Below are positions 1 to 40,779 of a DNA stretch of 64,000 nucleotides, in pieces; the stretch's first letter is position 1, and each line of letters begins with the position of its first letter. Made by a program: the position numbers and the translations under genes. The stretch is from contig JAUFOQ010000010.1 of NCBI GenBank assembly GCA_040285855.1, positions 1,798,001 to 1,862,000 of the forward strand. Reading direction: 5' to 3'. The stretch is from Eukaryota sp. GEM-RC1. Its lineage: Eukaryota. Under the pieces are notes generated by a model. The model saw only the letters and a list, made by a program, of their open reading frames with translations. It was not told the DNA's origin and made no database searches.

Positions 1-1875
1 GTGTATTTGAAACGTCTTGTTGAGGACTCTTGTCCTGGTGTTACTGCCAATAATCCTTTTCCTCTAACAAAATCACTGATTCCTAATCATATCAGATTGG
101 ATACTACATGGTTTAAAGAAGTTTATGCATCAGAAATGAAAGGTAGCTTTGATGACGTTCGAAAAGATATTTGGCACTCAGTTTTGAAACCAAAGTGTCT
201 TCCAAAGTCATTGTCTCATGACTTCAAATACAGTTCTATTTCTACAGATGGAGTTAGCTGTAGTTTAATGATGATGCGGAAAGATCTGCTTGATGGGAGA
301 GGAAATCCTCATAAGAAGGTGAAAGCAGTTGACTACACAGCTACTGAAAGGTACATTGATTCTTTGAGTTCCACAGAAATTCAAAACTTAAATTTGAAAT
401 CCAAAAGAATTGTTGCTATTGATCCTAATCAGCATGATTTGATGTATTGTGCTTCTTTAAAATCTGAGGAGGAAAAGAAAATCGAAGGTTTCGATACATC
501 AGCCAATCTCAGAAGAAGAAAGATTTCTCCAAAATCATCAAAGAAAAAAGGAAGCTTGAAAAAATTAAAAAAAGAATTGAAGGATTGGAAAGACGCACCC
601 ACTATTGACAAACCATCAACTGTCAAGTTGAAAAATCGTGATGATTGGAAAGTATTCAGATACACTGCTGGGGAGCGCAAAGCAGATATGAACAAGTCTC
701 CATGGAAAAGAAAAAAACAAAGAAGGAAAGAAAAAGAGCTAAGAGAAAGAAGAGGAAGCTGGAGAAGAAAATAAGACGATATAATCTCCACCGTTTGACT
801 GAATCTGAACGGTTACAACAATACTCTACCCAATTTATTCACATTCCAGATGGCAGACGCATTGACATAAATGGGCAACAAATTTTAGATCAATGGGGCT
901 CTAACTCGCCAGGTAGTAAATCTTGTGATTTGACTCTGTATTCTGCTTTTGTTCTTGGTAAAGAAATTACCTGTTCTTTACTACGATCACCCACTACTGA
1001 TCAAAGAACTACAGAAGGAATTTACGAAGAAAAGTGGTTTAGGAGGAATCGTCTCACACAATATTCAAGAAAGGAACGAAGTGAGAAAAACATGCTTCAC
1101 AGATTTGCTCTCCAGTTTGGAAACCCAGATGAAGTCGTTGTTGGGTATGGAGACTGGAACGACACTGCTTTTCGTCGAAGAAGAGGTAAAGCATCGACTG
1201 TAAAAGGTGCTTCAATTCGGAAATTACTGAGAAAATTTGGATTTAAAGTGTTCCTAGTTGATGAATTTAAGACCAGCAAATGTTGCTCTGCATGTGTTTC
1301 CAGAAACGACGAAGGTATCTGTTCCAATCCTGAAAGGATAAAAGTCACTGATCCTCATTGGAAGAAGAAGTTACAGAAGGAAGAGAAAAGAATTAAAAAA
1401 GGAAATTATGGAACACAATCTATTAGAAGAAAATGAAAATCGAAATTTTACCGAAGAATGGACAGACCAGTTGCAATTTTCGAAAGACAGATTAAAGAAC
1501 AACAAAGTCTCACCATGGGGCTTAGTTGAATGTGCTAAATGTCATGTCCTCTGGAATAGAGACTTCAATTCTGCTATTAATATTTACAATATTGTAAATG
1601 GAACCATTCAAGGTCAAGGTAGACCTGCCATCCTCGAGAGACCAAAATCTCAAACAACACCTGTCGTGGATGGCGGGAATACAGATCAGATTCCTAAGAA
1701 AAAGACTGTGAGTAAGGGTAAGGGTAAAGCAAAACGTCCTCTAACAAAAGTCAGAGGTCCTAACAAGTGTCGTATATGTTCTCAACCTGGACATAACAAA
1801 ACAACTTGTCCAAATAAGCCTAAGAAAGATGTACCCAAGGACTCACACGTAAACCAGAAAGATCAGGAATCTTGA
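1..1875 (+). CDS. Fanzor1-family RNA-guided endonuclease (eukaryotic TnpB homolog); 5' end outside window; two frameshifts in A-runs (~700-730, ~1395-1400)
   Basis: ORFs 1-774, 645-1436 and 1408-1875 join into one protein with the Fanzor1 motifs in order: FPLxxxxIPxHIRLDT, RuvC-I RIVAIDP (D 421-423), VVVGYGDW, rearranged RuvC-II VDEFKTSKCCSAC (E 1263-1265), and CAKC..WNRDFNSAINI (RuvC-III D 1561-1563). Confidence 0.9.
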
Positions 1876-1934
1876 ATCTATGAAGTTAGCTCGTCTTAAA
1901 AGACTTTGCGAATGAGGACATTTATTTGTTCAAA

Positions 1935-2031
1935 CTGTGAGTTTTGCTCATGAGTTTGCTTACGAGCTTGCTCATGAGATCATGAAAATGTGAAGGGTTA
2001 TGCCCTTATGCATTTGGAATGAAATTCACAG
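1935..2031 (+). ncRNA. Candidate Fanzor omega-RNA scaffold (5' boundary may extend to ~1880)
   Basis: Starts 60 nt after the Fanzor stop. Closing stem 1935-1945/2021-2031; hairpin 1947-1978 capped by GCU-UACG-AGC; hairpin 1986-2015. Several pairs are G-U. Ends exactly at the element terminus. Confidence 0.65.
2005..2031. repeat. Right terminal inverted repeat of the Fanzor element
   Basis: CTTATGCATTTGGAATGAAATTCACAG; its reverse complement matches 38171-38197 at 26/27 nt. Confidence 0.75.
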
Positions 2032-2446
2032 TATGATATATTATGAACTATTAGCCTGCCACCTTTTCATACAACATCATCTCTCATCCTCCTTACAAGT
2101 TGTGACGTGTCAATGATACTACACATTTAGTTCATTAGTATAGTTTATCAGCAATAAAGCCCGTACGTTCTTACTGTAGATTACACTGAACCTTAAATCA
2201 AGCAGTCTTATGAAAGACATCCCTGTTTGAGTGTATTTTATCAATCAGACGATACGTTCACTTCATTGGTATCCTAAGTGCCATTAACAGTTTAGTTTGG
2301 CAATCCGCGTTAACGCTCTAGTCAAATAATTTACCTTCAAGTAGCAAAAAGTTGATTTGTTTTTATTAGTTATTGAAATAACAACAAACAGATCATCGAG
2401 TTTTGATATGTTCACTTTCCATTACTTGTAACTGGTTTAGTAAAGC

Positions 2447-3203: not shown

Positions 3204-4572
3204 CATTCTACCCTGGATATAGTGCGCTCATTTTGGTACGCACTATATCCAGGTGCGCTATAAATGCAGAAAAACGCTTGTGCACGATGATCGTTGTATC
3301 TATGGTCTTTATTGTTTATAAACTAGGTTCGCAGTACTTTTGTCTAGAAGATGAGCAAGGTCACGGTTCTGGAAGACCGGGAGTAGTGCGCGTGTAATTT
3401 TATGGGTGTGGTTTGAGGTGAAAGTGTGTACATCCAGATTCCTAATCAATTGACCAAGAAACACTTAGTTCTCTTCCAATTCAACATGAGGGAAGACAAG
3501 AGTGAAGTTGTGAAAAGGTCAGATGGACCACAAAACCTGACAAGCGTAGTTTTCAAGTAATCTACGACATGAAGTGGTGCGTACAAAGTTCTGAAGGACC
3601 TCGAACACAATAAAAGCCCACCACTCGCTGAGGAAGTGGTGATTCTCACAATTCTTCTCAATATCAGCAAATAGACACCCCATACCATGTCAATGGTATC
3701 TGTTTCTTCTATATCAGTAGAGAGAGGAGATGTCAAGAGAAAACTGAGATGCTCTCAGTGAAGAATAGAAGTTGTTTCAGATAAAGAGTAACGTCCACAA
3801 AGATTACGGAAGCAACAGTTGATGTAGTCTCATATTGAGAAAGGATAACGCGATGAAGTTTATTGATGGAAGAAGACTATAACAAAAGTGATGGAATGCA
3901 CCAAAAGAGAACATGACACGACAGAAGGAGATATGATATACCAACAGAGTTGGAGGAGACACAATGTCTGGCAGTGAAAAGTGCGCACTACACTAATCAT
4001 GGTAATTAGTCTGTATTGGAAATTGGTCTCACATGGTAATTCTCACTCAGACTAATTCCCATGTTATAACACTTTAACTGAAACTCGATTGGAAATTAGT
4101 CTCACTTTTTGTGATAAAATACCTATGAAATAGAACAACATTCGACGAATACAAATACTGAACCACCTCGATACTACTTCTATTTTGCTATGAATAGCAT
4201 TTCCGCTGATGTATGTGTTTACAAGGCAAGATATTGAGTCAGGACGTCGTTTTGTTTATAATGAGCTTGCACAGTCTTCTGGTTGGTATACACATCCTAA
4301 TATGAATGTTGTGGGAGAAAATCAAGCAGACGCACCGAACGACTGTTTTCCTACTCTATTGGTCATAATGAATGACAACAATTTTTTTGGAGGTGAGACT
4401 AATTTCCAACAATGGTAATTAGTCTGAGTGAGACTATTTTTCTAACATGCTAATTAGTCTCACATGTTATTTAGTCTGAGTGAGACTAATTACCATGTGG
4501 AGCCTTTGGACATGGACATATGAATTAGTCTGAGACTAATTACCATGATTAGTGTATATCCAGTGTAGACTG
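3204..4572. mobile_element. Non-autonomous TA-targeting (Tc1/mariner-type) TIR element
   Basis: Left end CATTCTACCCTGGATATA versus reverse complement of right end CAGTCTACACTGGATATA; TA at 3202-3203 and 4573-4574. Confidence 0.7.
3991..4554. mobile_element. MITE nested in the right end of the 3204-4572 element
   Basis: Perfect 22-bp TIR CACTAATCATGGTAATTAGTCT; TA on both sides; many internal AATTAGTCT motifs. Confidence 0.85.
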
Positions 4573-5996
4573 TACTGAAGTGCATTCACTATATTGAAGA
4601 AATTTTATCAAGTTGTTCGTCACTTTTATCTACTGATGTGCAAATTACACATGTTGTACACCGATCGTCATCAAGAATACGTTTTGAAAATATTTGATTT
4701 GAGTAAATTTGAGCTGAACCAAACACAACAAGAGGGCTTGACTTGACTCTTGAGTTAAATGAGCCTGACTCAAGCTGACTGACTCAAAACTCATTGAGTC
4801 AGCGTGAGTCAAAACTATAGTACTACTCACAATTCATCTCTCTTCATTTCAATCTCCCTATAACCTCCAACTAGCTTAACGTACACAACTGTAGCCCACA
4901 TTTTGTTGATCTGTCAAGTGATAGTTTCACACTACCAAATGGCCAACTAGGATCCTTCAGTGAACATTTAATAGACGTTTTGGAAGAGGAATAGTCAGTG
5001 ACAAAGAAGTTACAGACCAGGAATAGTAAAATGCATATTGAGAAGTAAATACTGAATCAACACTGTTGAACTTCTGTTGAAAATTGTAGTGATGCAAATC
5101 ATCACAGTTGTGATTAAATTCAATGTTAGTAAATAAACACAAAATTTGACGTAATTCAACGATGATAGAATGGAGACGTCTCTAGAGACACGAGACTTGT
5201 GGAGATTTAATTGTTTTGAATTAAAGCGAAGTGGCGTATTGTCCGATGAGATTTGTTCCACTTAATACAAACCCTCTTGAATGCGGTTTAAACTCTAATG
5301 GTATCCGTTTGCTAAATTTGGAACTACCTTACTCTGTGCAATGTTATGTTAAAACACTATGTATGAAGATCTCTTAGTTGATCACACTTCAAATGATTCT
5401 ATTATTATACATTTTGTTATAAAATTGATAGTAAAAAGTAGAAAACAATCATTACGATCGACAAAAGGGTTTCTTGAAAGTTGTCGATAAAGTGTGTTTA
5501 AGAAAGAAAACGCTTTTTATATAGAGTTTCGAAAATCGGAATCTACAGAAACATGGACGGTTACCAAAATGACCAAGATCTGCGGACAACAGATGAACTT
5601 GAATCAAACAAAGTATTTCTCCACATTAAAGCTATTTTGCGCAGGATCATGCATACCTTTTGAGAACATCATATCCCAATGTGTGGTGTGGTGCCTTATT
5701 TCCAGGTAAGCGACATGGTTGATTCCTCCAATATTTCAGAATATCTGAACATTGGTCTGATAAAAGAATAGATGGTGAAACTGTTGGAATGTTTAAGAAG
5801 GAAACTCATTGAAGGTCCATAAGAACAGTTAAGAGATGGAAATAACATCAAGATAAAAAGGAATTGCCCTTGAACTAGCAAAAGAAGTAGAAGAAGAGCT
5901 GTGGGAGTGAAGAATCATTGACTAGAACATTCTAAGGAGAGAAGAAGAGGCAGACTGCCCTTACAATGGTGTATGTCTTTGACATCAACTTGAAGA

Positions 5997-8463
5997 ATGC
6001 TCAATCTCATGGCCAATTCAAGTGACTCTCGACCCTCTTCTAGAACTTCCAACACCACTGACGTCAAAAGTCCTCCTTCTAAACGCCCTCGAGTTCTAGA
6101 TAATCTTGCTCTTCCAAATACTTATTGCTTCCCTTCCGATTGTTTCTGCAACAACCTCCATTCTCTGCAAAGAGACAATCTTCTTACTGATACTGTCATT
6201 ACCTACGATGGCAACTCTTTCCACTGTCATTCCTTCGTCGTCAGTGCTTTCAGTCATGTTCTTAAGGAGAAGGGTCTGGAATCTACCACAATAGAGTTCC
6301 CTCTACTTCCTTTTCTTACAGATTCTGATATCTTCTTCTCAGTCCTGACAACTCTCTATGGACAATCTCTTACTGTTACTCCTGAAAATGTCCCTATGCT
6401 TTCCATCATTGCTTCTCTTCTTCAGTTCCAGGAGTTAAGTGAGTTTGTTACTGAGAGAATGACAAATGGGTTGGGAAATTTTGAGGACAACAATTTTAAA
6501 TTGGACTCAAAAAAGTTAATTTTAAAAATTGTGAGGTCTTGCCCTAAAGACGTACGTGTTTCTTATAAAAACACGTCTGCTACTTTGAACTCTGTCTTAT
6601 TGATATCATTTTCAAAAATGTTTCATAATTTAATTACATGTGAATTTAAAGATTCTGCTGTAAGAAATTTTGAATATTCTGATGAATTTCCGGGTGTATC
6701 TGAAGATGTTTTTGCATTATTCTTCTGTCTTTTCCATTATGAAAATTCGGTTAAATTCGGTATTGCAAATATTTTAGAGTTTTTCCAGTTATCAGTTTAT
6801 TTTCAAGTAGATCAGTTGAAAATGGCTTGTCAAGACTTTCTTGTTACAAATTCTTTTCTAACGAAGAGATTTTTAATCTTTTAGATACGTGTAAGGAAAA
6901 AAATCAATTCTATTTTGTTGATCAAAATCCGGAAATATTTTCTATTATTTCAAATTTAGATAATGATCCTATTCCTCTAAGAATTTCTTTCATTACTTCC
7001 TTGCTGCCTGTTGTTGATCCTTTTTGGTTGTTTAAATGTTTAATTGAATTATATAAGAGTGAAAATTCTCTAGATCCAAAAACCAATGAATCCTTAAAAT
7101 TCTCAGATGAATTCAGAGTAGAATTTTTTAAAGTTTTCGAGTTTTTAGATTCATTTGGTGATTGTCACTTAGTTTCCACTTTATTGGAGTGGTCCATTTA
7201 TATTTTTCAAAATGTTAGAAGTTTTACCAATACTCCTCCAGATTGGTTTCTATGGACCTTACAAAAGAATTCTAATTTTTCACTGATTTAAAACTCTTTG
7301 GTGACTGTTTTCTTTCTATTGTTACAGTTCAGTCTTTAGAAAATTATCCCAATTTATGTTTGTCAAAGAGTTATCTTGAACTTCTTTGTTCAATACTTCC
7401 TGGTAAGTTTAGCATGTGGCTTGGAAAATGTCTTGTGAAATCTTGGAAGAATTCTGAGGAATCTGATTCTTCTTGGACAAATGACTCTTTTTCAAATGTA
7501 TCTCATTAATTATGGAGAAAGCTGATTTGAACGTGGTTAAGTTTTTAAGTTTTTTAATGGAGTTCAGCAACGATGGTAAGCTTGATTCAAAATTTTACTG
7601 TTTCGTTGCAAAGACTTCTCTTGACTTCTGCTCATCACGTGATGAAGAGGTCAGAATTGGGAATCAACATTATTCTCATGGAATGAATAGCTTCTATGGT
7701 AATACTGTATCTCAGAGTTATGAAAAAGCCTTTACCTTGTTCAATGAAGGTGCTAATCATAATCACGTTGATTCTCTTTTTAGTTTAGGAAGTTGTTATT
7801 ATCTAGGTCTAGGTGTTGAAAAGAATCTCTCCAAAGCTGTGGAATATTTTAAAAAAATCTGCTGAGTTGGGAAGTATTTTTGGTATGATCAATTCAGGAA
7901 TGTGTTTATATCCTTCAAAAGTAGATGTCAATGCCACAGAAGTCTTTATGTGGTTTAAAAAGGCTGCCGATCTAGGAAGCTCTGCTGGCCATCTTGGACT
8001 TTATCGCTGTTATGTTAAAGGTATAGGGGTTGAAAAGAACACTGAAGAAGCCTTTGGGCATTTACAAGTTGCAGCTGACATGGGACATCCAGAGGCTATG
8101 AATTTTATTGGTGTAACATTTAGCTCATTAAGTGAAGGTGATGACGAGGCTTTGAGCCAAGCTGCTGAATATTTTAAATTATCTGCTGATGGAGGTTGTT
8201 CTCATGGCATGGTGAATATGGGTTTTTACCACATGAAAGGTCGGAAAGTAGAAAAGAATGAACAAAAGGCGCTAGAGTACTTTCAAAAAGCTGTAAACCT
8301 AAAGAATCCTCATGCGGTCGTCCATCTGATAAATCTGTATAAAACTAAAAGGAAGATTGCAAAGAATATAGAATCGCTGAAATTCTGGGAAAATAAGAAG
8401 ACAGAATTAGAAGGTTGTGAACCCATTGATAATTTAAAAAGAAGAGGATTTCATATACTTTGA
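5997..8463 (+). CDS. BTB/POZ (x2) + SEL1-like repeat protein, frameshifted
   Basis: N-terminal BTB (LTDTVITYDGNSFHCHSFVVSAFS); C-terminal SEL1 repeats (LGSCYYLGLGVEKNLSKAVEYFKK); split over several ORFs, mostly at A/T runs. Confidence 0.8.
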
Positions 8464-8619: not shown

Positions 8620-9720
8620 ACAAAATTCCTGGTCAAACTACCACAGTTCTTATACAACTTAGTGATAATTGATTTTTAAACTTAGGCATCGAGTGGAACA
8701 GAGAAAAAATCAAACGGTTATGCCAAATTGATAAGTTAAATCTCTTCTGCTGAGACTTACACATAGATCCAAAATCAGTGAAAAACTGAGATGCCACTTT
8801 ACCAAAACTACCGAAAATAGAAATAGTAATTTTGTTAAATACATTTCAATTTATCGTAATTGTAACAGACTAAACAACTAAATTTTGATGTCGATAAAAC
8901 AACATCTATCACACTCAAATCTTACATCAGCTTTGTCCCCATAAAAGGAACTCACATCTAATAAAGCTTTGGAGACCGTCAGGAAAATTGTTTCAAAAAT
9001 AGGTAAAACGATACGATTCAACCATAGCATACGATCAAAGCGTTCGACCATCCCGTATTCAACGTGTTTTACATGTCTTAGAGCCATCAATGTTTTCTTG
9101 TACTTATCCTGTTTGGCTTATTCAGAAGTGTATGTGCATAAATTGCAACTGGCACCAATACACATTTCGAATACAAATTTTGATTGAGCTTAGCAACATC
9201 GTTGGAATACAAATCAATTATACGTTGTTCGGCTCTTTCAAGATGATTCCAACCCTTTGAATTTAAGTTGTTAACATAAGTTTGAGCACATGGATCGAAT
9301 GTTGTAACATCAAGGATAATTTGACTAGAATCATTAAAAGAACCATGTAAGTCACCTCGACGTAAATTATAAATGAATTCAAGACCCAACTTATTAAACA
9401 AAGGGTTCAACTTTGACATGAAATACATGAGCTTTAATCATTTCAAATGAAACATCTGTGACAGCATTATGAAGAACAAACCCAAATTGATTTCGTTTTG
9501 GCAATTAATTACATGTCTAAAAGTTGCATTGCGATGAAGACTACATACACGTTCAGAATTGTCCAGCATTTCTGCAAAAACAAACCTAAACGCAATCGCT
9601 TATTTAACTTGCAAGCCTCATCAGACAAATGCAAACACAAAGGAAGTGGTTGTTGAGTGATCAAACAAGTTGAATTCTTAAAATCATTCTTTTAAGTGAC
9701 TTTGATGGAATGGAAATTTG
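8620..9720 (-). mobile_element. 3' remnant of an RLE-type (CRE/NeSL/R2-like) non-LTR retrotransposon
   Basis: Degenerate zinc-finger/HNAV region followed by RRGDL...IILDVTTFDP restriction-like endonuclease motif; homologous to other copies in the window. Confidence 0.65.
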
Positions 9721-10101: not shown

Positions 10102-12565
10102 CTACAACAACCCTCTTCTTTTCAAAACGTCAGTAGGTAAACAGCCTTTTAATTCTACCTTCTTTCTTTCCCAGTAATTTAGTGATTCTGATTGAGCTGG
10201 ATATCTAGTTGTGATTTTGTATACATCGATTAGTCTATCAATTGCAGAAATGTTGTTCAGTTTTGCTGATTGACGAAGCAGTTGTAGTCTTTTTGTTCAT
10301 CTCTACCTACTACACGACCTGTTCGATAGCAATTACCTAAATTAACTTTTCCATCAGAACAACCTCCATCAGCTGACAATTTAAAATATTTAAAAGCGTC
10401 AATTTCATTCATGTCCACGCCATCACCATCTGAGAGCAAACAACCCATAGTATTCATAGCCCCAGAATTTCCCATGTCAACAGCAGTTTCCAAGTATTCA
10501 AGCCCTTGGTCAATATTCACATCAACTCCCAAACCATTATCATAACAGTAATGAAGTCCGACAAAACCCTCTGAATTTCCTAATTCTGCCACATGTTTGA
10601 ACCAATTTAGTGCAATATTTTCATTTTTGTCAACTCCTTGGCCATTCAAGAAGCACCAGCCTAAATTAAGCATTCCATACATACTTCCCAACTCAGCAGA
10701 TTTTTTAAAACATTTCACAGCCTTTGCAAGATTCTTTTCTAAGCCTAAACCTAAAAAAAATAGCAACTTCCTAATTTGAAAATGGAATCGACGTGGCTAA
10801 GATTAGCACCTTCATTAAACAAGGTAAAAGCCTTTTCATAATTCTGTGTTACGGAATTTCCATTGAAGAAATTCAATCCATCTGAATACAGTTGATTACT
10901 AGCTTTGAGCTGTTCTTCACGCGATGACCAGAAGTCAAGAGAAGTCTTTGCAATGAAGGTTGTAATAGAGGGTCCAAGTTTACTATCGTTACTGATTTCC
11001 ATTAAGGAACTTAAGAACTTCAGTACATTCAAATTAGTCTTTTCCATAATTAATGAGATACATTTGAAAAAACAGTTATTTGTCCAAGAAAAATTGAATT
11101 CGTCAGAATTCTTCCAAGATTTCACCAGACTTTTTCCAAGCCACACGCAGAAATCACAAGGAAGTATTGAACAAAGAAGTTCAAGATAGTTCTTTGGCAA
11201 ACATAAATTAGGATAACTCTGTAGAGACTTAACTGTAACAATAGAAAGAAAACATTCACCAAAAAGATTTAAATCAGTAAAATAATTAGAATTCTTTTGT
11301 AAGGTCCATAGAAACCAATCTGGAGGAATTTTTTTAAAACATCTAACATTTTGAAAAATATAAATGGACCACTCCAATAAAGTGGAAATTAAGTGACAAT
11401 CACCAAATGAATCTAAAAACTCGAAAACTTTAAAAAATTCTACTCTGAATTCATCTGGAAATTTTAAAAGTTCATTGGTTTTTGGATCTAGAGAATGTTC
11501 ATTCTTGTATAGCTCAATTAAACATTTAAACAACCAAAAAGGATCAACAACAGTGATCAATGAAGTAATAAAAGAAACTCTAAGGGGGAAAGGTTGACCA
11601 CTATAATCTGAAAAAATTGAAAAAACTTCCGAATTCTGATCAACAAAATAGAACTGATTCTTTTCATTACAAATTTTTAGAAGATGCAAAATCTCTGTTT
11701 TAGAAAAACAATTAGTAATAAGGAAATCGTTACAGTCTAATTGAATTTGATCAACTTGGAAATAGACAGATAATTGAAAAAACTCCAAAATATTTGAAAT
11801 ACTCAATTTAACAGAATTCTGGTAATGGACAAGTCCGAAAAACAAACCAAAAACGTGTTCAGATACACCAGGAAATTCATCAGAATATTCAAAATTTCTA
11901 ACAGCTGAATCTTTAAATTCACATGTAATTAAATTCTGAAACATTTTTGAAAATGAAACCAATAAGACAGAGTTCAATGCAATAGCCGTGTTTTTATAAG
12001 AAACCTGTACGTCTTTAGGGCAAGACTCCACTACTTTTAAAATTAACCTTTTTATGTCCAATGTAAAAATGTTATCCTCAAAGTTTCCCAACCCTTTTGT
12101 CATTCTCTCAGTAACAAACTCACTTAACTCCTGGAACTGAAGAAGAGAAGCAATGAAGGAAAGCGTAGGGACATTTTCAGGAGTAACAGTAAGAGATTGA
12201 CCATAGAGAGTTGATAGGACTGGGAAGAAGATATCAGGATCTGTAAGAAAAGGAAGTAGAGGGAATTCTATTGTGGTAGATTCAAGACTCTTCTCCTTAA
12301 GAACAGGACTGAAAGCACTGACGACGAAGGAATGACAGTGGAAAGAGTTGCCATCGTAGATAATGACAGTGTCAGTAAGAAGGTTGTCCTTCTGCAACGA
12401 ATAGAGGTTGTTGCAGAAGCAATGTGAAGGGAAGCAATAAGTATTTGGAAGAGGACGACTATCTAGAACTCGAGGGCGTTTAGAAGGAGGACTTTTGACG
12501 TCAGTGGTGTTGGAAGTTCTAGAAGATGGCGGAGAGTGTCTTGAATTGGACATGAGATTGGTCAT
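10102..12565 (-). CDS. BTB/POZ + SEL1-like repeat protein, paralog of 5997-8463, frameshifted near 10755 and 10280
   Basis: The 604-aa ORF is highly similar to the plus-strand copy; SEL1 repeats continue in 10257-10766; same KRRG C-terminus, TAG at 10102-10104. Confidence 0.85.
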
Positions 12566-13339
12566 TCTTCAAGTCCATATCAAAGACATACACCAATGTA
12601 AAGGCAGTCTGCCTCGATCTCTCTCCTTAGACTGTTCTAGTCAATCATTCTTGTTCAGTCACTTCCACAGTCTCTTTTTCTATTTCTTTTGCCAGTTCAA
12701 GCTGAATTCCTTTTTGCCTTGATGTTATTTCCTTCTCTTAACTGTCCTTATGGAGCTTATCGGACGGTTTCTTTCTTCTTTCTTGACTTCTTCTAGTTCC
12801 ATGAGTCTTTAGCTTCTCTTACTTACTGTACATTGAATTTGAACTCATCCAAACATGTGACATGCTTTGAGTTACATAATTCCAGTCAATGATGAAAGAA
12901 AATTTTCAGCATTAAGTAAACAAAAATAGTCATTTTTTCTTAAATGAATGAAAACAGCATTCTATAATTCATGTTGATTGTCTTCAGTTTGGGCAACTCT
13001 TGAAAGTGATTGTTCGATGTCAGCGTTCTTTAAAACTTGGGTGCTTCTTGTTTTACCTATTACAATGTCAAAAATATCCGTTTCTCGGAAATATTTGGCT
13101 TCCCACACATTTAAGTATGAAAACATATTTTTTCAAAAAAGTGGATTCGAAAAAGTCTAGATGACGCATGTTGAAGCATTTCCTCAGGGATGTGGGTTGA
13201 AATGGGGTTATCGATAACTGTTCAAAAAGAAAAAGTATATGTGACTCTAGTACAACCGAAGTTTCTGCTCTCTTTTGATTAACCAAAGTAATTGTCTGTA
13301 CTTTAAGTATGGACCCATTGACCATGACACGTGGCACCA

Positions 13340-24248: not shown

Positions 24249-24984
24249 TATGGGAATAATTTTTGTTGATGAACCCTCCCTTTGTAACCAAACCATTACA
24301 TTTAATGAAGAATCCATTGAAGTCAATAAATCTGTCCTTGCTGCTCATTCTACGTACTTCCGACCCCTCTAGTTCTTAGAGTTTGGGGATAAACTCGAGA
24401 GCCCCATCGACTTCTCACATCTCCCTGTTGATTCCCACAACTTCTTCGCTTTCCTCAAGTCCCTCTTCGGAAAGTCATTCACCCTCAACGAGAGCAATGC
24501 TTATGACTTCTACTATCTCGTCCACTACTTCCAAGTGAACAAACTGATTGATAACATTAGAAGATCACCTAAACACTCATCTCGTGACCTTAACATGACT
24601 GTAGCTAACCCACACCAGCCTTGGGTTGGCTATATCATTGAGACCTGTATGGATTGCTTATTTTTGCTGACATCAGCACAATCCTTTTCGAGCTCTAAGA
24701 CATGCTGCCAGAAAGTTTATGATCGCAGTTTCTGGAAAATCACAGACGTTAGACAACTAAGGATCATGTATTTCGTGATTGCCTGTCAATGCCTCATAGT
24801 TGCAAGTTTTACTATTGATCACGATTTAAAGACTATTCCTTTCAATTATTAGAATGAATGGGGACTTACTTGAGAAACTGTTTCAGTAATTGAATTAGAT
24901 AAATTCATTTAGAAAACTGCTTCCTTCTGATACTCCTTCTCTTTTCTCACTGTTGAATATGCCAAGGAGCTCTGCCAAGGTGTA
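24249..24984 (+). pseudogene. BTB...protein-kinase pseudogene (kinase part resumes at 26864)
   Basis: ITFNEESIEVNKSVLAAHSTYF BTB motif; EYAKELCQGV joins SYLHSKSIVHGDLKPGNVL after the insertion. Confidence 0.65.
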
Positions 24985-25079
24985 TAAATTAATCTTCATG
25001 CATTAATTCCGATTCATTCGACATCCCACAAAACAGAAACTCAAACAGAAACAAAAATATTTATTTTTTTAGCAGAAAA

Positions 25080-25544
25080 GTGATTAGTTGGTTGGGATTA
25101 ATGACGAACCCTCAGTTGTCCGCAACTAAAGTTAAAGTTAGATTCTATGAAGCGATGGAAGATCTTCCGATCCAAAATTTCTTGATGGAATTAACTCAAC
25201 TCCATCGAAACGAAGTATCGAGAAATGCGATGGAAAGAACTTTCACAGACTACGACATTGGAGATGACTATTTCCATTTAATCGAAAAAACTATCGAAGG
25301 TTTAATTAGGGATGATCGACGACAAAAGCAATGGACCCCAATCAACATCATCTTCAAGCTCTCAAGAATCTTGACCTATCATTATTCCAATTCTGAAGTC
25401 GTCAAGAAGAACAAAAACGATAGAGCCTTAACTGTTCATTACAAAAGAGTTTGGATTCAAATGCTACTCCAAAGCTACAAACCATTTACGATGGATTATA
25501 TTCAGGAATTATTCCTCGAATTGAAAGAGAGGATGGAGCTTTAA
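25080..25544 (+). CDS. Hypothetical protein (duplicate of 31069-31533)
   Basis: 154-aa ORF open in both copies with a few substitutions; no motif recognised. Confidence 0.5.
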   Translation: MISWLGLMTNPQLSATKVKVRFYEAMEDLPIQNFLMELTQLHRNEVSRNAMERTFTDYDIGDDYFHLIEKTIEGLIRDDRRQKQWTPINIIFKLSRILTYHYSNSEVVKKNKNDRALTVHYKRVWIQMLLQSYKPFTMDYIQELFLELKERMEL

Positions 25545-25659
25545 AATGATCGACCAATTAAGGAATAAATTATATTTTTCTTCGTCTTTGGCTGGACCAA
25601 TAATGAAGAAAAATGATCAAAGATCGGAAAATTGCTTTTAGTTTCGAAATAAGTTTACT

Positions 25660-26384
25660 ATGCCTAGATTTTCCGATCTCTTAGCTGCTACTACTGCAAA
25701 GCCTTCTCCCACCGAGACCTCTTCTCTCCCTCAAACAGAGCATTCTCCCCCAGAACCCACTGCTCGCGTTGAAGAAGAGGATTCTCTTGAAGACCAAGTT
25801 ATCGTAATTCCCCCTGAATCCTTGTCGGCCGCCCCTACTCGGACACTTCCTCCTCCTCCTCGCCGTCGCACTAATGCTCCTTCTGGGGATCTCCCCCCGC
25901 AGAACCCGCTGAGGAAAGTTCTCCTGAACCTACTCTCGCCGAGCCCCTCATTGATGCCGTTCGTCCAACTCGTCCCGTTCCCCTAGCCCCTCCTGTTCGC
26001 AATTCCGGTAGTCGTGGTCGTGGTGGTCGTGGTGGCCGTGGTGGTCATGACAATGCCGTTCCTAGGATGCCTGGTCCCACTCAAGCTCGTCCATTGAGGA
26101 TTAGAGCTCATGTAGTAAATGGGATTTTGTGTATTCCCGAGTCGGGCATTGATAAGAAGGTTCCCCTCAATATGATTTCCACAAGAGCTGACGGGACTTA
26201 TGTTGTCGAGTTGTCGGTGGTAATGACCCTTGAACACCACCACTCCGACAGAAATCCCCCTCCTATGGATCCAACCATTTATCGACATGAGGATTGGCAA
26301 GGGGCCATGCAGGCTTCTAGATTCCAGTCCCATATTCTTAGACAGAATCCAGGGAACCCAGAGAACCCAGAGGACGGTGAGTAA
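25660..26384 (+). CDS. Pro-rich, RGG-containing hypothetical protein (~241 aa once the C-run is corrected), copy 1
   Basis: ATG 25660; the C-run is 6 nt here and 8 nt in copy 2, and 7 would give one ORF; RGRGGRGGRGG box. Confidence 0.6.
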
Positions 26385-28299
26385 GGATTCACCGCGTGGC
26401 GTGATTGGGGAGGTCACGTCATCAGTAAACTTCACGCAGGTTGGTTCAGTTCGCTGGATCCGACGCCTCTGCAACAACTTCAGGTTTGGGGTGTGTGTTC
26501 CTTGCATGCTCTTTGCCTTACTCCTCGCTCGTATTGGAAATTCGACTGACTCTTAACTTGCAGGTTCACCGCAGCAAGTCGCACAGTTGAAGACGTATCA
26601 TTTCATTGGTTGATTATTTACAAATATCGAATGAACGTCTACGAGAACAAAAATATTTTTTATCTTCAGAAAAATGAATGGTGGATCGATGGTCGCCAAC
26701 TTTGTATTTTATTTTTCGACGAAAAATTGGAAAACTAGGTAGGTTATTTTCGGAAATCAAGTCTGGAGAGGAAGCAGGAAAGGGATGGAGTGATCGTAGT
26801 AGTTAGAGCGGAAATCTGCCAAGTCGGAAGAGAGTTGGTGTCGGAGGCCATCTAACGATGGTGTAAGCTATCTCCATAGTAAGTCAATTGTCCATGGAGA
26901 TCTCAAACCAGGAAATGTGTTGATTGTGATGATAGATTTGTTGTTGTTCTTAAGCTATGCAAGATGTACACTATGATTCCAAAGTTGAATATAAGTACTG
27001 TCAATCTGTCTTCTATGTCCATTAATTGTTTTTAATTGGGTAACAAGTGATCAAAGTAATGACCTTGATTATTGTAATTTTGTACACCAAGAATAGCTAA
27101 AAAATGACTAAAATTTTGAAAAATGAATTTTTGAATATGATGAAATTCTGAGTAGTGAAAATTCCTTCCTCCACTGAATAGAACTACACATATTATATAA
27201 ATCAATACAATTTAAAAAAACACGTCAAAAATAAATCTTTTTATTAAATCCAAACGAGATAACAAATCTAAGTTCATCTTTCATTGAAATCGTTTTAACC
27301 AATATCCATGAGAAACACGCGTGTTGATGCCCTTGTAATTCCAGATCTTCACGCAAGTCTGAGAACTTTATCTACTGATTCAATGATGACGTGTTCATGG
27401 GGTTATTACTAGCACTGAAAACAACCAGAGTAATAGAGAAGATTTGTTATCATATATTGATGGTGACGTTTGCTAAGGTCATAAAGCACGTCATCTTTTG
27501 ACTCTAGAAGTAGTAGTACTTGATGGTTGTTGACAATGAAAGACAGAAGACAAAGACATTGAAGTGAGACAGGGTGAAAATCAACAGACTCTAAGGAAGT
27601 ATAGGTAGTAGAACCAAAGAAAGTAACAGTCTTACTTTCACAAGTACTAGCAAACATCGATGACGTGTCACCTACGATTGATAACGTGTCACTTAGAGGA
27701 CTTACTGAGGAGTAACTAGTTTCACCACTAGTGAGTAGAATCCAATAGTAAGTACTGAGAAGTAGAGGAGATCTAGTAATGGAAGAGAGAAGAAGTAGAT
27801 AGTTGGAGTGAAGAACTAGAGAGATGAAAGGTTGGTAGGATTCAGAAAACTTCTGATCTTTTGGGGAGTGTTAATATTCCTTAGTGTTTCTGAGAGAGTG
27901 TGTAGGAGAAGTGAAGCTGAGAGTTAGCTTCAGCGTTTGAGGAAGAGGGATCGAACTGACTCCTGTTTTGAACAGCACGGTGTATAAAGTCATTCATCAT
28001 CTTCTCTTTCAAGGACCTAGTTGGAGGAAAAGGATGACGTGATTTCCCTCTCCTTGAGGGGGGAGGGGGAGGGCGATCGACGCGATGATCATAGGTAAGT
28101 GAAGCTCGAAAATAAGCAGGATTGGAACAGCACAAGCTATCGTAAGGGCCCAATATTGTATCTAGGAATGGAAAGAAATGTTCCTCAAGAGCATTGTGTT
28201 GTATTTTCGAGAGACATATACAATGATATGAATCATGGGAATACTCAGACTTATGAGCCAAAGCTCTCAAAGAAAGAGAATGTATTTGCTCATGTTCTA

Positions 28300-30017: not shown

Positions 30018-30995
30018 ATGGACATCAACCGCGAACTTAAACGTGTTTTTCAAATTTTGAACGATATCGCCCCAGAAGGCGAAACTACTTCCCATCTTCC
30101 TGAAGGAAATCCTCCCTCAGAGGAAACTGCAAAAAAATTCAGGAATCGATGCAAGAAATACGGAATCCCAATCCCAGAAAACTTCACTACTCGGAAATGT
30201 TGTGAACATTTTATCCACGAAGACATGGTTAGTGGCAATTACGCATTAATCCCACGAGGACTATTCTCAGAAAAATCTTTCTACGAGAAACCAGATTTTG
30301 CCGAAAGAACGGATTATGGTGTGTACGATCTAGAAGCCGAATTCTATCGTTATGAAGAATGTAAACAATTCCGCCTTATTCACGGAGAATCCGGATTTAG
30401 AAACCCCATCGTAGCCTATTCATTGGCTCTTTTGAATCGATATGGGGTTCTTCAAAGAAATCCCATCAGTGAAAACTATGAAACGGTTTTGAAGTTGGTT
30501 GTTCTCAGACTTAAAACACTTCAAACATTAGAAGGAGTATCTCGCGTTGATAAAATCCGCAATAATAAATTCCTTAAACTCCTCACCGATGCTGAAGACG
30601 AATGCATTGAATATGGACTTACTGACGAAAGATGTAGAGGTTTATTCAACCTCTATATCGACATTTGTGAAGTCGCCTCTCAATCCAACTATATCCAAGA
30701 TTATGCAAAAGAGTTAGTTGATGATCAAATCATTACTAAATTCTTCAAAAAATACTTCGATGTAGCTTTTTCCGTCAAGACTCAAAGGTTCTTGGCCGTC
30801 TTTATGTTAGCATACGTGCCCATTTTAAAAATACCTTCATCTTCTAGTTATCGCGAATTCGCAAAAACTTTAGATAAGGTAAAGAATCATGATCGACGAA
30901 GAATCAGAGTTCCAAATATAAATTTCGTTAGACCTGGTAAATTCATTGGCACCAGAGTTTTCCACGACTTTTATAAATTAATCTTCATGCATTAA
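30018..30995 (+). CDS. Hypothetical protein (325 aa) of the orphan cluster
   Basis: Uninterrupted ATG-initiated ORF; no family recognised. Confidence 0.7.
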   Translation: MDINRELKRVFQILNDIAPEGETTSHLPEGNPPSEETAKKFRNRCKKYGIPIPENFTTRKCCEHFIHEDMVSGNYALIPRGLFSEKSFYEKPDFAERTDYGVYDLEAEFYRYEECKQFRLIHGESGFRNPIVAYSLALLNRYGVLQRNPISENYETVLKLVVLRLKTLQTLEGVSRVDKIRNNKFLKLLTDAEDECIEYGLTDERCRGLFNLYIDICEVASQSNYIQDYAKELVDDQIITKFFKKYFDVAFSVKTQRFLAVFMLAYVPILKIPSSSSYREFAKTLDKVKNHDRRRIRVPNINFVRPGKFIGTRVFHDFYKLIFMH

Positions 30996-31068
30996 TTCCG
31001 ATTCATTCGACATCCCACAAAACAGAAACTCAAACAGAAACAAAAATATTTATTTTTTTAGCAGAAAA

Positions 31069-31533
31069 GTGATTAGTTGGTTGGGATTAATGACGAACCC
31101 TCAATTGTCCGCAGCTAAAGTTAAAGTTAGATTCTATGAAGCGATGGGAGATCTTCCGATCCAAAACTTCTTGATGGAATTAATTCAATTCCATCGAAAC
31201 GAAGTATCTAGAAATGCGATGGAAAGAACTTTCACAGACTACGACATTGGAGATGACTATTTCCATTTAATCGAAAAAACCATCGAAGGTTTAATTAGGG
31301 ATGATCGACGACAAAAGCAATGGACCCCAATCAACATCATCTTCAAGCTCTCAAGAATCTTGACCTATCATTATTCCAATTCTGAAGTCGTCAAGAAGAA
31401 CAAAAACGATAGAGCCTTAACTGTTCATTACAAAAGAGTTTGGATTCAAATGCTACTCCAAAGCTACAAACCATTTACGATGGATTATATTCAGGAATTA
31501 TTCCTCGAATTGAAAGAGAGGATGGAGCTTTAA
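31069..31533 (+). CDS. Hypothetical protein (154 aa) of the orphan cluster
   Basis: Open in both duplicate copies; start codon uncertain. Confidence 0.5.
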   Translation: MISWLGLMTNPQLSAAKVKVRFYEAMGDLPIQNFLMELIQFHRNEVSRNAMERTFTDYDIGDDYFHLIEKTIEGLIRDDRRQKQWTPINIIFKLSRILTYHYSNSEVVKKNKNDRALTVHYKRVWIQMLLQSYKPFTMDYIQELFLELKERMEL

Positions 31534-31640
31534 AATGATCGACCAATTAAGGATATTTTTCTTCGTCTTTGGCTGGACCAATAATGAAGAAAAATGATCA
31601 AAGATCGGAAAATTGCTTTTAGTTTCGAAATAAGTTTACT

Positions 31641-32367
31641 ATGCCTAGATTTTCCGATCTCTTAGCTGCTACTACTGCAAAGCCTTCTCCCACCGAGACC
31701 TCTTCTCTCCCTCAAACAGAGCATTCTCCCCCAGAACCCACTGCTCGCGTTGAAGAAGAGGATTCTCTTGAAGACCAAGTTATCGTAATTCCCCCTGAAT
31801 CCTTGTCGGCCGCCCCTACTCGGCCACTTCCTCCTCCTCCTCGCCGTCGCACTAATGCTCCTTCTGGGGATCTCCCCCCCCGCAGAACCCGCTGAGGAAA
31901 GTTCTCCTGAACCTACTCTCGCCGAGCCCCTCATTGATGCCGTTCGTCCAACTCGTCCCGTTCCCCTAGCCCCTCCTGTTCGCAATTCCGGTAGTCGTGG
32001 TCGTGGTGGTCGTGGTGGCCGTGGTGGTCATGACAATGCCGTTCCTAGGATGCCTGGTCCCACTCAAGCTCGTCCATTGAGGATTAGAGCTCATGTAGTA
32101 AATGGGATTTTGTGTATTCCCGAGTCGGGCATTGATAAGAAGGTTCCCCTCAATATGATTTCCACAAGAGCTGACGGGACTTATGTTGTCGAGTTGTCGG
32201 TGGTAATGACCCTTGAACACCACCACTCCAACAGAAATCCCCCTCCTATGGATCCAACCATTTATCGACATGAGGATTGGCAAGGGGCCATGCAGGCTTC
32301 TAGATTCCAGTCCCATATTCTTAGACAGAATCCAGGGAACCCAGAGAACCCAGAGGACGGTGAGTAA
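31641..32367 (+). CDS. Pro-rich, RGG-containing hypothetical protein, copy 2
   Basis: ORFs 31641-31895 and 31855-32367 join at the C8 run 31874-31881. Confidence 0.6.
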
Positions 32368-35820: not shown

Positions 35821-36885
35821 ACGTAGAAATGAAGAGATAATAAAAGTAGTGAATGACCAATGTAGGAAGCATCTTCAGTCACACCCCCAGTATCCATAGA
35901 TAGATAGAATTCATCTTAAAATGAACAATAATGTTATGTCTATGAGTCAGTTATGCCTCAGCCATATTCGTGGTAAGAACAGATCATATCAGTATGTATG
36001 ATGCGTTTAGACTACATCTATATCTAATACTTAATATATTAAACTGATTCATAAATACAAACAATCACGTTTACTTGCTTGTATTGTAACACTTACGAAC
36101 GTTCTAACAACAAACAGCTGGACTGAATATCAACTGTAGGGTTTCAGTGTATAACATGGACTTTAGATCTCGTATTGTTCTATTTGTGGCCAAAAATAGA
36201 CGTTTTCAGCAACATTGGTTTTCACTACAATCCAAAAGACTTTCACGAGACTCCATCGATGTTGAATCTGTAGAACATTGAGAAACAACATTGCTGATCA
36301 TTAGTTGAGTATCACTATCTGATTTGGAGCCAAGTTAATGACGGTCAGTTTCTATCTTTTTAAATTTTTTATACAATTGGTTCTTTTCAAAATTGATGTG
36401 TCAGGAGTAACAATCAGTGTTGAACTCTACTTTAACATTTCAACAATTGTGCAACAAACAGTCTCAGTACAGAATTAGTCTTACTGAGACTAAGTCTTTC
36501 TTGAAGTGTAGCTTCCATATAATTCCTCAACACCGGGATAACACACCAAGCACAATTAACCAAACGGTGAAAACTGACCATCAGATTGTCTTTAAAGACA
36601 AGCTGTTCTGTAATAACTCAAATGGTCTAAAGCCCAAACGAAGTCTCATTTTCAAAAACCATTCATATTCCTTTAGATTCAAGGTGAATCTCCCATGCAA
36701 TTAAACATTGAAAGTAGATAATGTATCTTCACATATATTTTGTAAAAATACACAGAAAGCGGGATCTTTTAACTTTAGCCAAGATAATCTAGTTAGTATT
36801 GTGCAAGATCTCATGAAAGAATACAAATTTTTCCAAAGCTTTCTACCACGAACATGAAGATTAAGTTGAGGTGTGTATTTTACTT

Positions 36886-37658: not shown

Positions 37659-38000
37659 CTATGAAACACTAGACACAGAAAATTCCTGGTCAACAGTACC
37701 ACGGTATTTATACAACTTTGTGAAAATTGGTTTAAAAAACTTAAGCATCGAACGGAACAAAGAAGAAATCAAACGGTTAAGCCAAATGGATAAGTTAAAT
37801 CTCATATTCTGAGACTTACACATAAATCCAAAATCAGTTATAAATTGAGAAGACATTTCACCAATACTTCTAAAAATAGAATTATCAAATGGAACAATTA
37901 CAATTTTTGAACACAAATTTTGGTTGAGTTTAGTTACATTTTACGTTTTGCGGCTGTTTATGGGTGATTGAAACCTTTTGAATTTAAGCCATTAACTAAA
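37659..38000 (-). mobile_element. 3' remnant of RLE non-LTR retrotransposon
   Basis: Homologous to 8620-8830 and 58820-59030 (FITDFGFMCKSQNMRFNLSIWLNRLI). Confidence 0.6.
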
Positions 38001-38228
38001 GAATCAAACAAGTGTTAATTAAAATACAAATTGTTGTTTGGTATATTAATTAAATAAGCTTACTAAGTTGCTTCTTTGTTTCGAATACTCCAACCCATTT
38101 GTCAAAGATTTAGTTACATTTGATGAAATGAATCGCTACTATGGAACTAAACTGTTCAACAATCCTATTTCTGTGAATTTCTTTCCAAATGCATAAGCCG
38201 TGTTTCTCTTCAGTCTAACTTCAATTAC

Positions 38229-40184
38229 ATGACGTTATCCAATGATCCTGAATACCAAGAATTAGAAGGAAGAGTAATAGAACGCCTTTTATTTACTCTT
38301 ACAAATACAAACTATCATCATTATTAACAAATGAGATACAAATACCTCTATATCATCTCAAATTCATGTCTCAATGCAAAGAGACAGTTCAAAATTGAAT
38401 CAAAATACCTAAACAATGCTTTGAAAAGGGAAAACGACAACCTTCCTCTCCAGTAACTTTCATTAAAATTCTTTCCATACTGCTTACACAATTTGCCAAA
38501 ATCTGTGAGAAATTGTTGACCGAAGCAACCAAACTTACCATAAAGAGAAATAGCAAAAGGATGGAAAACAAAAGGATTGTGTCGGCGACAATTCATCTTG
38601 GAAATTAATTCGCCATAACGATCTAATTTTTTCTTTCAGCAGTTTCAAGAGATGAATAGTTTTCGTCTAAAATTTTGTTAACGGAAGTTGAGTTACAAGG
38701 ATCAACCGTAGTAAAGTCCATAATTATTTCTTGAGAGGACAAACAAGGACCAGTCAAATCACCTCTGCTCTTATCTCTCATAATATCCGTCATACAAAGT
38801 ATTTAAAACTGGTTCGATTTTCCCATGAAAACCATTGCTCTTAAACAATTCTAAACATTGATCACGTAAACTGTTGTGACTAATTGATCTTAAATGAATA
38901 AACTTATGACAGTTGACCACATGATGTAAAGAGGCTAAAGAAGAACCACACACACAAGTAAACTTTTAAAGAAGACCAACAGGCCATAAACCCAACCTCA
39001 AACGAATGTGGAAAAGCCATTCATGATCTTTTAAGTTGAAACTATATCTTTGAGGATATCGGGTAATCAAAGTAGAAGCCTCATCACTAGAAATGTCTTT
39101 CCTAAAAGCACAAAAGCGGGACTCTCGATTTTAGCCAAGCTAATACGATTGTTAAAGTCCAAGCTTTCATGATAGTTTCTAGGAGTACTTGATTCTGTTC
39201 GAAAAAATGGTACTCCTTCTTTAAATGTACTCATACTTGGCCATGAAGTTGGGCAAAACTTGTCAAACAACGACTAGATAATATTGTTACAAAGTCTAAG
39301 GTTAAAATGATTGAATCTTATATTAAAAGAGCTCATCAAATAAGGTACTCTCCGTTTGAAACATTTTTTTTAAATACTATTCACCATTCATCTGTTTTCG
39401 ATTAGGTCCAGAATTTACTTTATGTTGCTGTTCCAATTGTCACTGATACTGATACAGATGAACCATCAGATGAACAAGCAGGTGTTTTCGATGCTAGTCG
39501 TCCTATTAAATTAGAAATTATTGAAGATCAACCGGGTACACTTGAACCTAACATGTGGGGACTAGAATTCAAACTACTATAATAGAATTGCTAGACTGGC
39601 GAAATTATTTTATATTGAACTCAAAAAAATCAACTGTTGTATGTGATCACGATTACAAATAAGCAATCTTTAAACAGTACCGATGATATTATGACTGTAC
39701 AAGAGTCTTTAACAAACATAATTTCTAAAACAAATGAGGCCTCAACTCAAAATCAGTTTGCCCTCGTGTACAAATTCGTAATGGAGATGCCGTTGTTTTC
39801 AATTTGGATGATGATATTGATTCTGCCATGGATATGATTGCTCTTCAAAATGAAGGATATGAGGAGCTTATCTTTCTTCACACTCATCATTGGATGAACA
39901 ATTTTCTTAGTGAGACTGATATATATTCACAAATCACTTTAGTTGCTCCAACTATTAATGAGAAAAATCCACCAGCAATTGTTATTTCTTGGAATGATTT
40001 GAAAGGTGAAAATTTCATTGGCTTGACTGTGAAGGCATACGAGTTGTCTGACTTAGGTCTAAAACTTGCAAAAGAAAAACGTTCTAATTCTTATAAAGAT
40101 GAAGAAATTGAAAAGTTTATCGAAGAAAATCGGTCAAAACTTTATAATAAAGTTAAACCTTTTGAAAACTCTTCTCATTTTTAA
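38229..40184 (+). pseudogene. JAB1/MPN+ (JAMM) metalloprotease, deubiquitinase-like; interrupted by a retroelement and frameshifts
   Basis: Exact JAMM motif HTH-x7-S-x2-D (HTHHWMNNFLSETD, 39879-39920); upstream EQAGVF (E 39472); downstream AIVISW..VKAYELSDLG as in AMSH/Prp8-type MPN folds. ATG 38229 reads in frame into 39422 once 38290-39417 is removed. Confidence 0.7.
38290..39417 (-). mobile_element. 5'-truncated RLE non-LTR retrotransposon insertion
   Basis: CGSSLASLHHVVNCHK..HNSLRD zinc finger; DLTGPCL...IIMDFTTVDP endonuclease; FHPFAISLYGKFG; CTTT at both junctions. Confidence 0.75.
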
Positions 40185-40294
40185 ATAATAAATTTAATTA
40201 ATTATTTAAAAACTAAAAATAAATAAAAAAAATTGAATTTTTTTTAATATTTTTGTTTTGAATTTTTTTTAAAATAAACATCTTTGTATAAATA

Positions 40295-40505
40295 ATGATT
40301 GATGGTGGACACTTCTTGTTGCATTACATTCCTCGTTTAGAACTAGCTGCTGAATCTGTTGGACTTGATAGGATTGTGTTTCCCAGTAGCCTCTATTTAT
40401 CTCGTATTTTGCATTACATGGGAACAGAAATTATTACAAATTACAAGACTAACATGAGTGAACACTTTCACGAATACTTGTTTCAAGTATTTAATCTAGT
40501 TACCA
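40295..40505 (+). pseudogene. Fanzor1 N-terminal (REC-region) fragment
   Basis: LSRILHYMGTEIITNYKTNMSEHFHEYLFQVFNLV resembles the Fanzor1 segment ILxYxxxxIITxYENNIxxHFxEYxxRFVN (recalled consensus, not searched). Confidence 0.6.
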
Positions 40506-40779
40506 TGATCTTACTGACAAGAATCAACGACAAGTGTTCAGATCTCTTGTATACTGATTGCTTTTACAAAGAAAGTCGAACCAGCATTACGAGGATGCAG
40601 TGTCACCTAAAGGAGTGTGCCAAGCTACAAGACACTAGTCAACTGATGGTTTGCCCCTTCTTCTGAAGAAAACATCATGTGCCTGATTCTCTGACAAGAT
40701 TGATAGTTAAATATCTCTCCTATGTGATCATTCTGAACTCATTGTCAGAAGAAACAGTCTAGACCATTTACACAACAAT

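Follow-up and report, generated by a model that had tools for sequence, protein, structure and literature searches.

A probable Fanzor1 guide RNA scaffold overlapping the right end of its element in Eukaryota sp. GEM-RC1

Fanzor1 guide RNAs that overlap a terminal inverted repeat (TIR) have already been published, and the kind is known. The question raised by the present locus is whether the folded stretch directly downstream of a broken reading frame belongs to this kind and, if so, where its scaffold ends and its guide begins. The window, which is the whole stretch of DNA that was analysed, comprises 64,000 nucleotides of Eukaryota sp. GEM-RC1 (assembly GCA_040285855.1, contig JAUFOQ010000010.1, positions 1,798,001 to 1,862,000). 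A preliminary description made from the letters alone had proposed an omega-RNA that overlaps the right TIR and takes its guide from the flank. The position of the folded region, the TIR, and the layout of related loci support this proposal, whereas the size given for the TIR, the argument for RNA over DNA, and the extent of the guide had to be corrected. We estimate a probability of roughly 80% that the region at 1876-2031 is a Fanzor1 omega-RNA scaffold lying between stop codon and right TIR end, working by the mechanism proposed below. The features of the locus are collected in Table 1.

Table 1. Features of the locus and of a second, decayed element, in window coordinates
Feature	Position	Strand	Basis
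Fanzor1 gene, 3' part in three frames (5' side beyond the window start)	1..1875	+	motifs, relatives
Small 4-bp hairpin	1893..1904	+	pair probability 0.85-0.92
Best stem-loop 1 candidate: 7 bp including 2 G-U, 6-nt loop	1909..1928	+	predicted fold
Predicted 6-nt linker ending CAAA	1929..1934	+	linkers of viral relatives, 6-nt linker of SpuFz1
Closing helix P1, 5' strand (partner 2023-2031)	1935..1943	+	probability 0.96-1.0
Helix P2: 9 bp and 3 bp separated by a U-U/U-U internal loop; UACG loop with a U-A closing pair	1947..1978	+	predicted fold
Helix P3: 4 bp directly on P1, then 13-bp bulged stem (1986-2015)	1980..2022	+	predicted fold
Right TIR, 27 nt, ending CACAG; 3' strands of P3 and P1	2005..2031	+	26/27 inverted match to 38171-38197
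Flank: target-site duplication (0-3 nt, length inferred), then predicted 14-15-nt guide	2032..2049	+	Fanzor1 literature
Left TIR of the second, decayed Fanzor1 element	38171..38197	+	inverted repeat, Fanzor piece behind it
Decayed Fanzor1 N-terminal half, split by a ~550-bp insertion	39256..40540	+	profile E 3.6e-6

The upstream gene and its family

The stop codon at 1873-1875 lies directly 5' of the folded stretch. Fanzor1 proteins are described as having a RuvC triad with DP, a catalytic E placed six residues ahead of the zinc finger, and a C-terminal RD (PMC10711439, PMC13565253). The window frames carry TDG, DPN (RuvC-I), GDW, DEFKTSKCCSAC (RuvC-II and zinc finger), CxxC-WNRD (RuvC-III), and a C-terminal CCHC knuckle, with DPN, DEFKTSKCCSAC, and WNRD making up the triad. 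TDG, which belongs to the WED domain and lies in frame 1, was retained together with DP, E, and RD in 42-43 of 43 aligned proteins. The uninterrupted family member P0169 (644 aa) is 95-97% identical to the window across its first two frames, and a PDB sequence search with this protein found SpuFz1 (E 1.7e-15) and PpFz1 as the only clear matches. When its predicted model (mean pLDDT 67) was searched with Foldseek, all seven matches at E ≤ 0.001 were SpuFz1, PpFz1, or GtFz1 proteins; the Fanzor1 structures ranged from E 1.5e-14 (SpuFz1) to 4e-6 (GtFz1), and Fanzor2 was reached at E 0.034. The gene is a Fanzor1, nearer to Fanzor1 than to Fanzor2 or TnpB.

A protein search of 1.84 billion representatives resulted in 734 relatives (E ≤ 0.001), of which the two best are 93% and 98% identical and represent clusters of 5 and 26 records. 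Among the 20 records listed for these clusters there are 18 distinct locus tags, all from Eukaryota sp. GEM-RC1, and the family has at least 18 near-identical loci in records bearing this label. The label is given to a Skoliomonas isolate, a metamonad (as described in PMC11603281), and the host of the window is probably a skoliomonad, from a group of little-studied anaerobic protists. With copies 93-98% identical, the family has spread recently. Protein-based scans found no close relative beyond the skoliomonad-labelled records, the remaining matches having 21-42% identity in their best segment, and in a tree of 67 sequences four skoliomonad-family proteins formed one clade (support 1.0). The CCHC knuckle after RuvC-III was present in 14 of the 115 collected proteins that have the RuvC-III motif, all of this family or its sibling P0173. 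Among the papers listed by our literature searches there was no report of a zinc knuckle in a Fanzor or of a Fanzor in metamonads or Skoliomonas, although supplementary catalogues of the Fanzor papers may list these proteins.

In the window copy the reading frame is broken by frameshifts in A-rich runs near 705-718 and 1380-1400. Three of the 20 listed family records, each of 644 aa, read through both breaks, and the other 17 are fragments. An explanation of the frame changes as introns was dropped because these three records read straight through without extra sequence. Since the breaks sit in A-rich runs and their positions vary among copies, sequencing slips are plausible. Elsewhere among the collected proteins, P0013 and P0175 (Eukaryota sp. 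TZLM3-RCL; 1473-1479 aa, in a cluster of four records) carry PF03104 (E 5e-13), the 3'-5' exonuclease domain of B-type DNA polymerases, fused to Fanzor1, and their RuvC-II has NE in place of DE, with the catalytic E kept. The N-terminal part of both contains a motif that we take to resemble a 2A ribosome-skipping peptide.

The element end, the predicted fold, and the flank

The end of the element was placed from an inverted match of 26 of 27 positions between 2005-2031 and 38171-38197, which has a chance of about 4e-9. On the outer side the similarity stops at 2031, directly after CACAG, in what is one comparison with a probable sibling element. A structured region thus lies between the open reading frame and the right end and overlaps the TIR, the arrangement expected of an omega-RNA. 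The TIR had been described as the 3' half of the structure; it amounts to 27 of the 156 nt from the stop codon to the element end and contributes only the 3' strands of two helices.

The left end of the window's own Fanzor1 copy falls before window base 1. The repeat at 38171 was assigned to a second element as its left TIR because a piece of a Fanzor N-terminal half lies behind it. This piece (44% and 81% identity to P0183), which database proteins lengthen to 39256-40534, starts 1.06 kb inside the TIR, past a repeated retroelement-like insertion. The element probably belongs to a sibling family: one member of its N-terminal cluster has a locus tag three away from that of P0009, which is 57% identical to P0006, and no member has a tag near those listed for the main family (15 of 26). 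The preliminary description had remarked that the left TIR lacks the pairing partners seen at the right end. The region at 38171 indeed does not fold (z +0.89), which indicates that only the right end has these partners, but the comparison is with a different element 36 kb downstream. A scan for the TIR pattern gave no matches in metagenome contigs and none in viral contigs; the single match in GTDB (L241) was taken as chance because similarity does not extend past the pattern and a Fanzor profile finds nothing at that locus. No transposase was identified in the pieces of the window.

Several further repeats were observed in the window. The insertion that splits the decayed N-terminal half (39763-40309, ~550 bp) has an A/T-rich 3' end and an open reading frame with a weak JAB match (E 0.086). 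The JAB-like frame (39738-40184) was considered as regular cargo and dropped, as it forms a singleton cluster without longer homologues and interrupts the Fanzor half. A multi-copy decayed sequence at 38348-38965 on the minus strand recurs in pieces at 8678-9527, 36611-36769, 37701-37937, 55437-56029, 58936-59013, 60214-60447, and 61191-61298, and one copy lies inside the decayed Fanzor element. Its translation resembles the endonuclease region at the C-terminus of non-LTR retrotransposons, and searches against Pfam and Atlas assigned no family. A MITE-like element at 3989-4556 has a perfect 24-nt TIR starting and ending with TA and many internal AATTAGTCT repeats; it gave the second-best fold score in the window and possibly lies within a larger element whose ends are an inverted repeat of 21 nt at 90% identity (3201-3221/4555-4575). 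Larger duplications comprise a 3.16-kb direct one (24983-28138 and 30972-34122, 99% identity) and an inverted 2.6-kb one (5812-8450 and 10109-12758, 81%) of a gene with BTB and Sel1 repeats.

The stretch 1876-2051 folds at -53.6 kcal/mol (z -4.86), an energy reached by none of 200 shuffles, and every sequence quoted in the preliminary description was found where it had been placed. Among 322 folds of 100 nt in the window, the segment 1932-2031 came first, although its placement by hand gave it an advantage over the others, which lay on a 400-nt grid. An 11-bp helix pairing 1935-1945 with 2021-2031 had been proposed and can form with two G-U pairs (1941-2025 and 1945-2021), but only its outer nine pairs are stable. 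The inner two are minor (U1944-A2022 at 0.38-0.39, U1945-G2021 at 0.12), since 2019-2022 prefers 1980-1983 as its partner (0.86), and the preferred fold is therefore a three-way junction of P1, P2, and P3 in which no spacer separates P3 from the P1 helix on which it stacks. The 9-bp stem 1947-1955/1970-1978 with its UACG tip is present at 0.97-1.0, although the loop is closed by U1960-A1965 and not by C-G, and the 13-bp stem is present as described, with a single bulged A. Upstream, the GUCU/AGAC hairpin at 1893-1904 forms, whereas the proposed GGACA/UGUUC hairpin at 1916-1931 stands in competition with one at 1908-1929 (0.03 against 0.93 with the native flank, 0.39 against 0.55 without it). 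The latter contains the best candidate for stem-loop 1, which has the right size and place, is rich in G-U pairs, and faces this rival fold. P1 is predicted to end at G2031 or U2032, such that the scaffold would terminate in a double helix beside the guide. An Rfam search of 1500-2400 returned nothing relevant, its single match having E 0.99.

The guide had been proposed to occupy 2032-2051. The flank as its source is supported by the likeness to Fanzor1, and the proposed stretch is probably a few nucleotides too long and may start 1-3 nt early. In the published descriptions of Fanzor1, the target-site duplication counts as scaffold (Yoon 2023, PMC10711439) and natural guide extensions measure 14-15 nt (Saito 2023, PMC10432273), which together argue for a shorter or later guide. 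By this analogy, the guide probably starts between 2032 and 2035 and is nearer 15 nt in length. A1934-U2032 is predicted at 0.97, and four of the first five flank bases pair with 1930-1934, so that a seed starting at 2032 would be hidden. Such pairing is possible for 4.5% of the 5-mers in the window, and it is either a chance feature of this copy or a duplication drawn into the scaffold as in relatives. No second copy of the DNA at 2032-2049 was found in the window, and the three 15-nt guide registers had no target elsewhere in the window with zero or one mismatch; one match with two mismatches was taken as chance.

The bases bordering the two repeats come from different insertions (ATTT before the left TIR at 38171, TATG after the right TIR at 2031) and do not define a duplication. 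A Tc1/mariner-type TA follows the right end, and TT precedes the decayed left end. For the 4-bp AWWT duplication reported for Sola2-type carriers (Bao and Jurka 2013, PMC3627910), ATTT fits and TATG does not. A T-W-T triplet, as a speculation, would fit both flanks.

Giant-virus relatives and alternative readings

As a yardstick, we used 80 viral Fanzor1 loci (L001-L080) with about 30% protein identity, which provide 64 distinct 3' regions. A common element end could be placed in 62 of these 64. Directly past the inverted repeat, which takes in TA and a further two bases, the information content drops from 1.68 bit to 0.11 bit; positions -3, -2, 0, and +1 were forced by the anchor, and those columns are no evidence. 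A matching left repeat (two mismatches at most, within the fetched flank) was found in 12 of the 62. Covariation was assessed on hand-picked rows with near-duplicates dropped (42 of 62 and 37 of 58 ends), the smaller set also leaving out rows with an ill-fitting first hairpin. In these rows the closing helix stops at the last conserved base, is 99.6-99.7% paired, and shows two-sided changes at two of seven pairs, and its covariation score was reached by none of 500 shuffles. It surrounds two helices, the last of which stacks on it without a spacer in a three-way junction. Stem-loop 1 has 7 bp with two-sided changes at all seven, and the 10-nt linker that follows ends in CAAAA in 37 of 52 cases.

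The same order of parts is predicted in the window: a candidate first hairpin, a linker ending in CAAA, a closing helix at the element end, and a three-way junction with the last helix stacked. The CAAA ending has a chance of 0.009 per position and a 7-bp hairpin with a 6-nt loop placed 6 nt before P1 a chance of 0.0017 per position. When the window was searched with the viral covariance model R1, 14 matches at E ≤ 10 were obtained, none at the 1876-2051 locus, and the likeness is therefore one of layout only. The viral relatives also differ from the window in their TIR, in having no DNA similarity to it, in the linker (10 nt versus 6), and in a shorter P2. They further have a signature at stem-loop 1, a C two bases before the 7-bp stem and a G closing the 6-nt loop, which occurs in 32 of 37 selected relatives and, by a looser rule, in 99 of 100 further relatives. 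None of the 38 candidate hairpins at 1600-2035 has it, the 1909-1928 hairpin included. Within the relatives, L001-L080 and L081-L240 (mostly giant-virus contigs) form two Fanzor1 groups with a common right-end motif ending in GGTGTAAA. One group has a three-way junction scaffold and the other apparently one long stem, and both keep a UCA-type leader and the loop-ending G at stem-loop 1.

Whether the structure acts as RNA or as DNA has to be weighed. The G-U pairs and the UNCG-type loop had been taken to favour RNA, which they hardly do. The region scores z -4.86 as RNA and -4.69 with DNA parameters, and the opposite strand folds at -4.41; an extra-stable cUNCGg tetraloop needs a C-G closing pair. 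The inverted repeats might then act as DNA, either by offering a transposase subterminal palindromes to bind or by forming a hairpin in single-stranded DNA, without any guide RNA. Apart from the DNA fold score, such a role could draw on the palindrome CTCATGAG, which occurs twice within 40 nt (in the arms of P2) along with TCATGA three times. Transposase sites usually mark both ends of an element, but the left TIR region has no such repeats and does not fold. Moreover, the 38-pair core has five non-Watson-Crick pairs, each of them a G-U when read on the sense strand, even if this bias reaches only p ~0.06 (against the same number of transitions placed randomly, 1000 trials). Every Fanzor1 tested in the accounts of PMC10530073, PMC10711439, and PMC10432273 has an RNA from the same position. 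We regard the DNA role as quite improbable, and the case for RNA rests on genomic context.

Alternatively, the RNA could be shorter and differently folded, starting near 1947, with a UCA...UACG hairpin at 1948-1970 as stem-loop 1 and a closing helix of 1989-1994/2025-2030. The UCA at 1948-1950 is indeed followed by a 20-nt hairpin of 7-8 bp (1951-1970), in which the spacing from C to loop G exceeds by one base that of the viral relatives, whose loops often end in ACG-A. This fold is weaker by about 17 kcal/mol (-28.2 versus -44.8), its leader is buried inside P2 with a probability of ~1, its linker would be 18 nt as against 6-10 in known cases, and P2 and P3 persist in the folds predicted for RNAs cut at 1940-1947; we give it a slim chance. 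The missing signature, the two frameshifts, and the 17 fragments could be read as decay, in which case the gene would be dead and the scaffold next to it, once functional, would be without its stem-loop 1 and unable to load into Fanzor. We consider this very improbable, as the copies are recent in their spread and three of the records read through both breaks, the breaks differ among copies and sit in A-runs as sequencing slips would, the catalytic motifs are all intact, the core has no A-C mismatch, and GtFz1 is likewise described as holding its RNA 5' end differently (Xu 2024, PMC11423790).

Under the omega-RNA reading, a transcript would run from the 3' end of the Fanzor1 gene across the TIR into the flank and would fold into the first hairpin (probably 1909-1928), the short linker, and the P1 helix around two inner stems. 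Fanzor would bind this folded RNA, and about 14-15 nt of flank after the target-site duplication would serve as the guide. The complex may then cut an insertion site emptied by excision, beside a motif identical to the left flank, and repair templated by a filled copy would restore the element, in line with the carrier families and homing model discussed in Jiang 2023 (PMC10530073), Bao and Jurka 2013 (PMC3627910), and a 2026 review (PMC13565253). The RNA of the window copy could serve Fanzor protein made by other copies; gene-less copies of Spu-1 are described as supplying RNA (Saito 2023, PMC10432273). Rather doubtful as a whole is the more specific proposal of a recently expanded skoliomonad Fanzor1 variant, having a long RNA without the stem-loop 1 signature, a gained CCHC knuckle that maybe grips the RNA, an unclassified carrier with a CTGTG...CACAG TIR, a short T-rich duplication pairing with the AAA of the linker, and a guide from 2035.

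What is new here is a many-copy Fanzor1 system in a lineage that is probably skoliomonad. Because the copies are many and nearly identical, the genome by itself allows the scaffold, the start of the guide, the duplication, and the target motif to be read off. If a Fanzor1 combined a zinc knuckle with an altered first hairpin and maybe a further target motif, it would extend the known range of RNA designs and candidate editing enzymes.

Comparison with known Fanzor systems

Published Fanzor1 RNAs overlap the TIR, have no pseudoknot, and end in a helix (PMC10711439, PMC10432273, PMC11423790), and they are described as 75-150 nt long with a constant 7-bp stem-loop 1 and a variable remainder (Xu 2024, PMC11423790). 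Those reported by Yoon 2023 have three stems, with the TIR and the duplication within the scaffold (PMC10711439). Among these, the SfAV Fanzor1 of insect viruses shares with the window, in a comparison of layout, a TIR-bounded element, a TIR forming the terminal helix, a guide from the flank (predicted for the window), and a three-stem RNA without a pseudoknot, the last being in our case predicted by folding with nested pairs; its host is viral, whereas that of the window is cellular (PMC10711439). The 150-nt omega-RNA of GtFz1 (PMC11423790) is similar in having a long scaffold (about 125-140 nt plus guide here) in which several stems separate stem-loop 1 from the guide. GtFz1 is the weakest of the three Fanzor1 fold matches, and its loci as described seem to be without inverted repeats (Saito 2023, PMC10432273).

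The closest counterpart at the protein level is SpuFz1 of the Spu-1 element (PDB 8gkh), the best match, which is described as having a 75-nt scaffold across the right repeat without a pseudoknot (Saito 2023, PMC10432273). This scaffold is one unbranched stem, whereas that of the window is predicted to be branched, and the C6-G20 leader/loop pair of SpuFz1 was not found at the window locus. The window element also departs from Spu-1 in its CTGTG...CACAG ends, in a TA at the right end only, and in its C-terminal zinc knuckle. The two nevertheless share inverted repeats of about 30 nt, the DPN catalytic motif, an RNA (predicted in the window) located between stop codon and right repeat, and a 6-nt linker before the closing stem.
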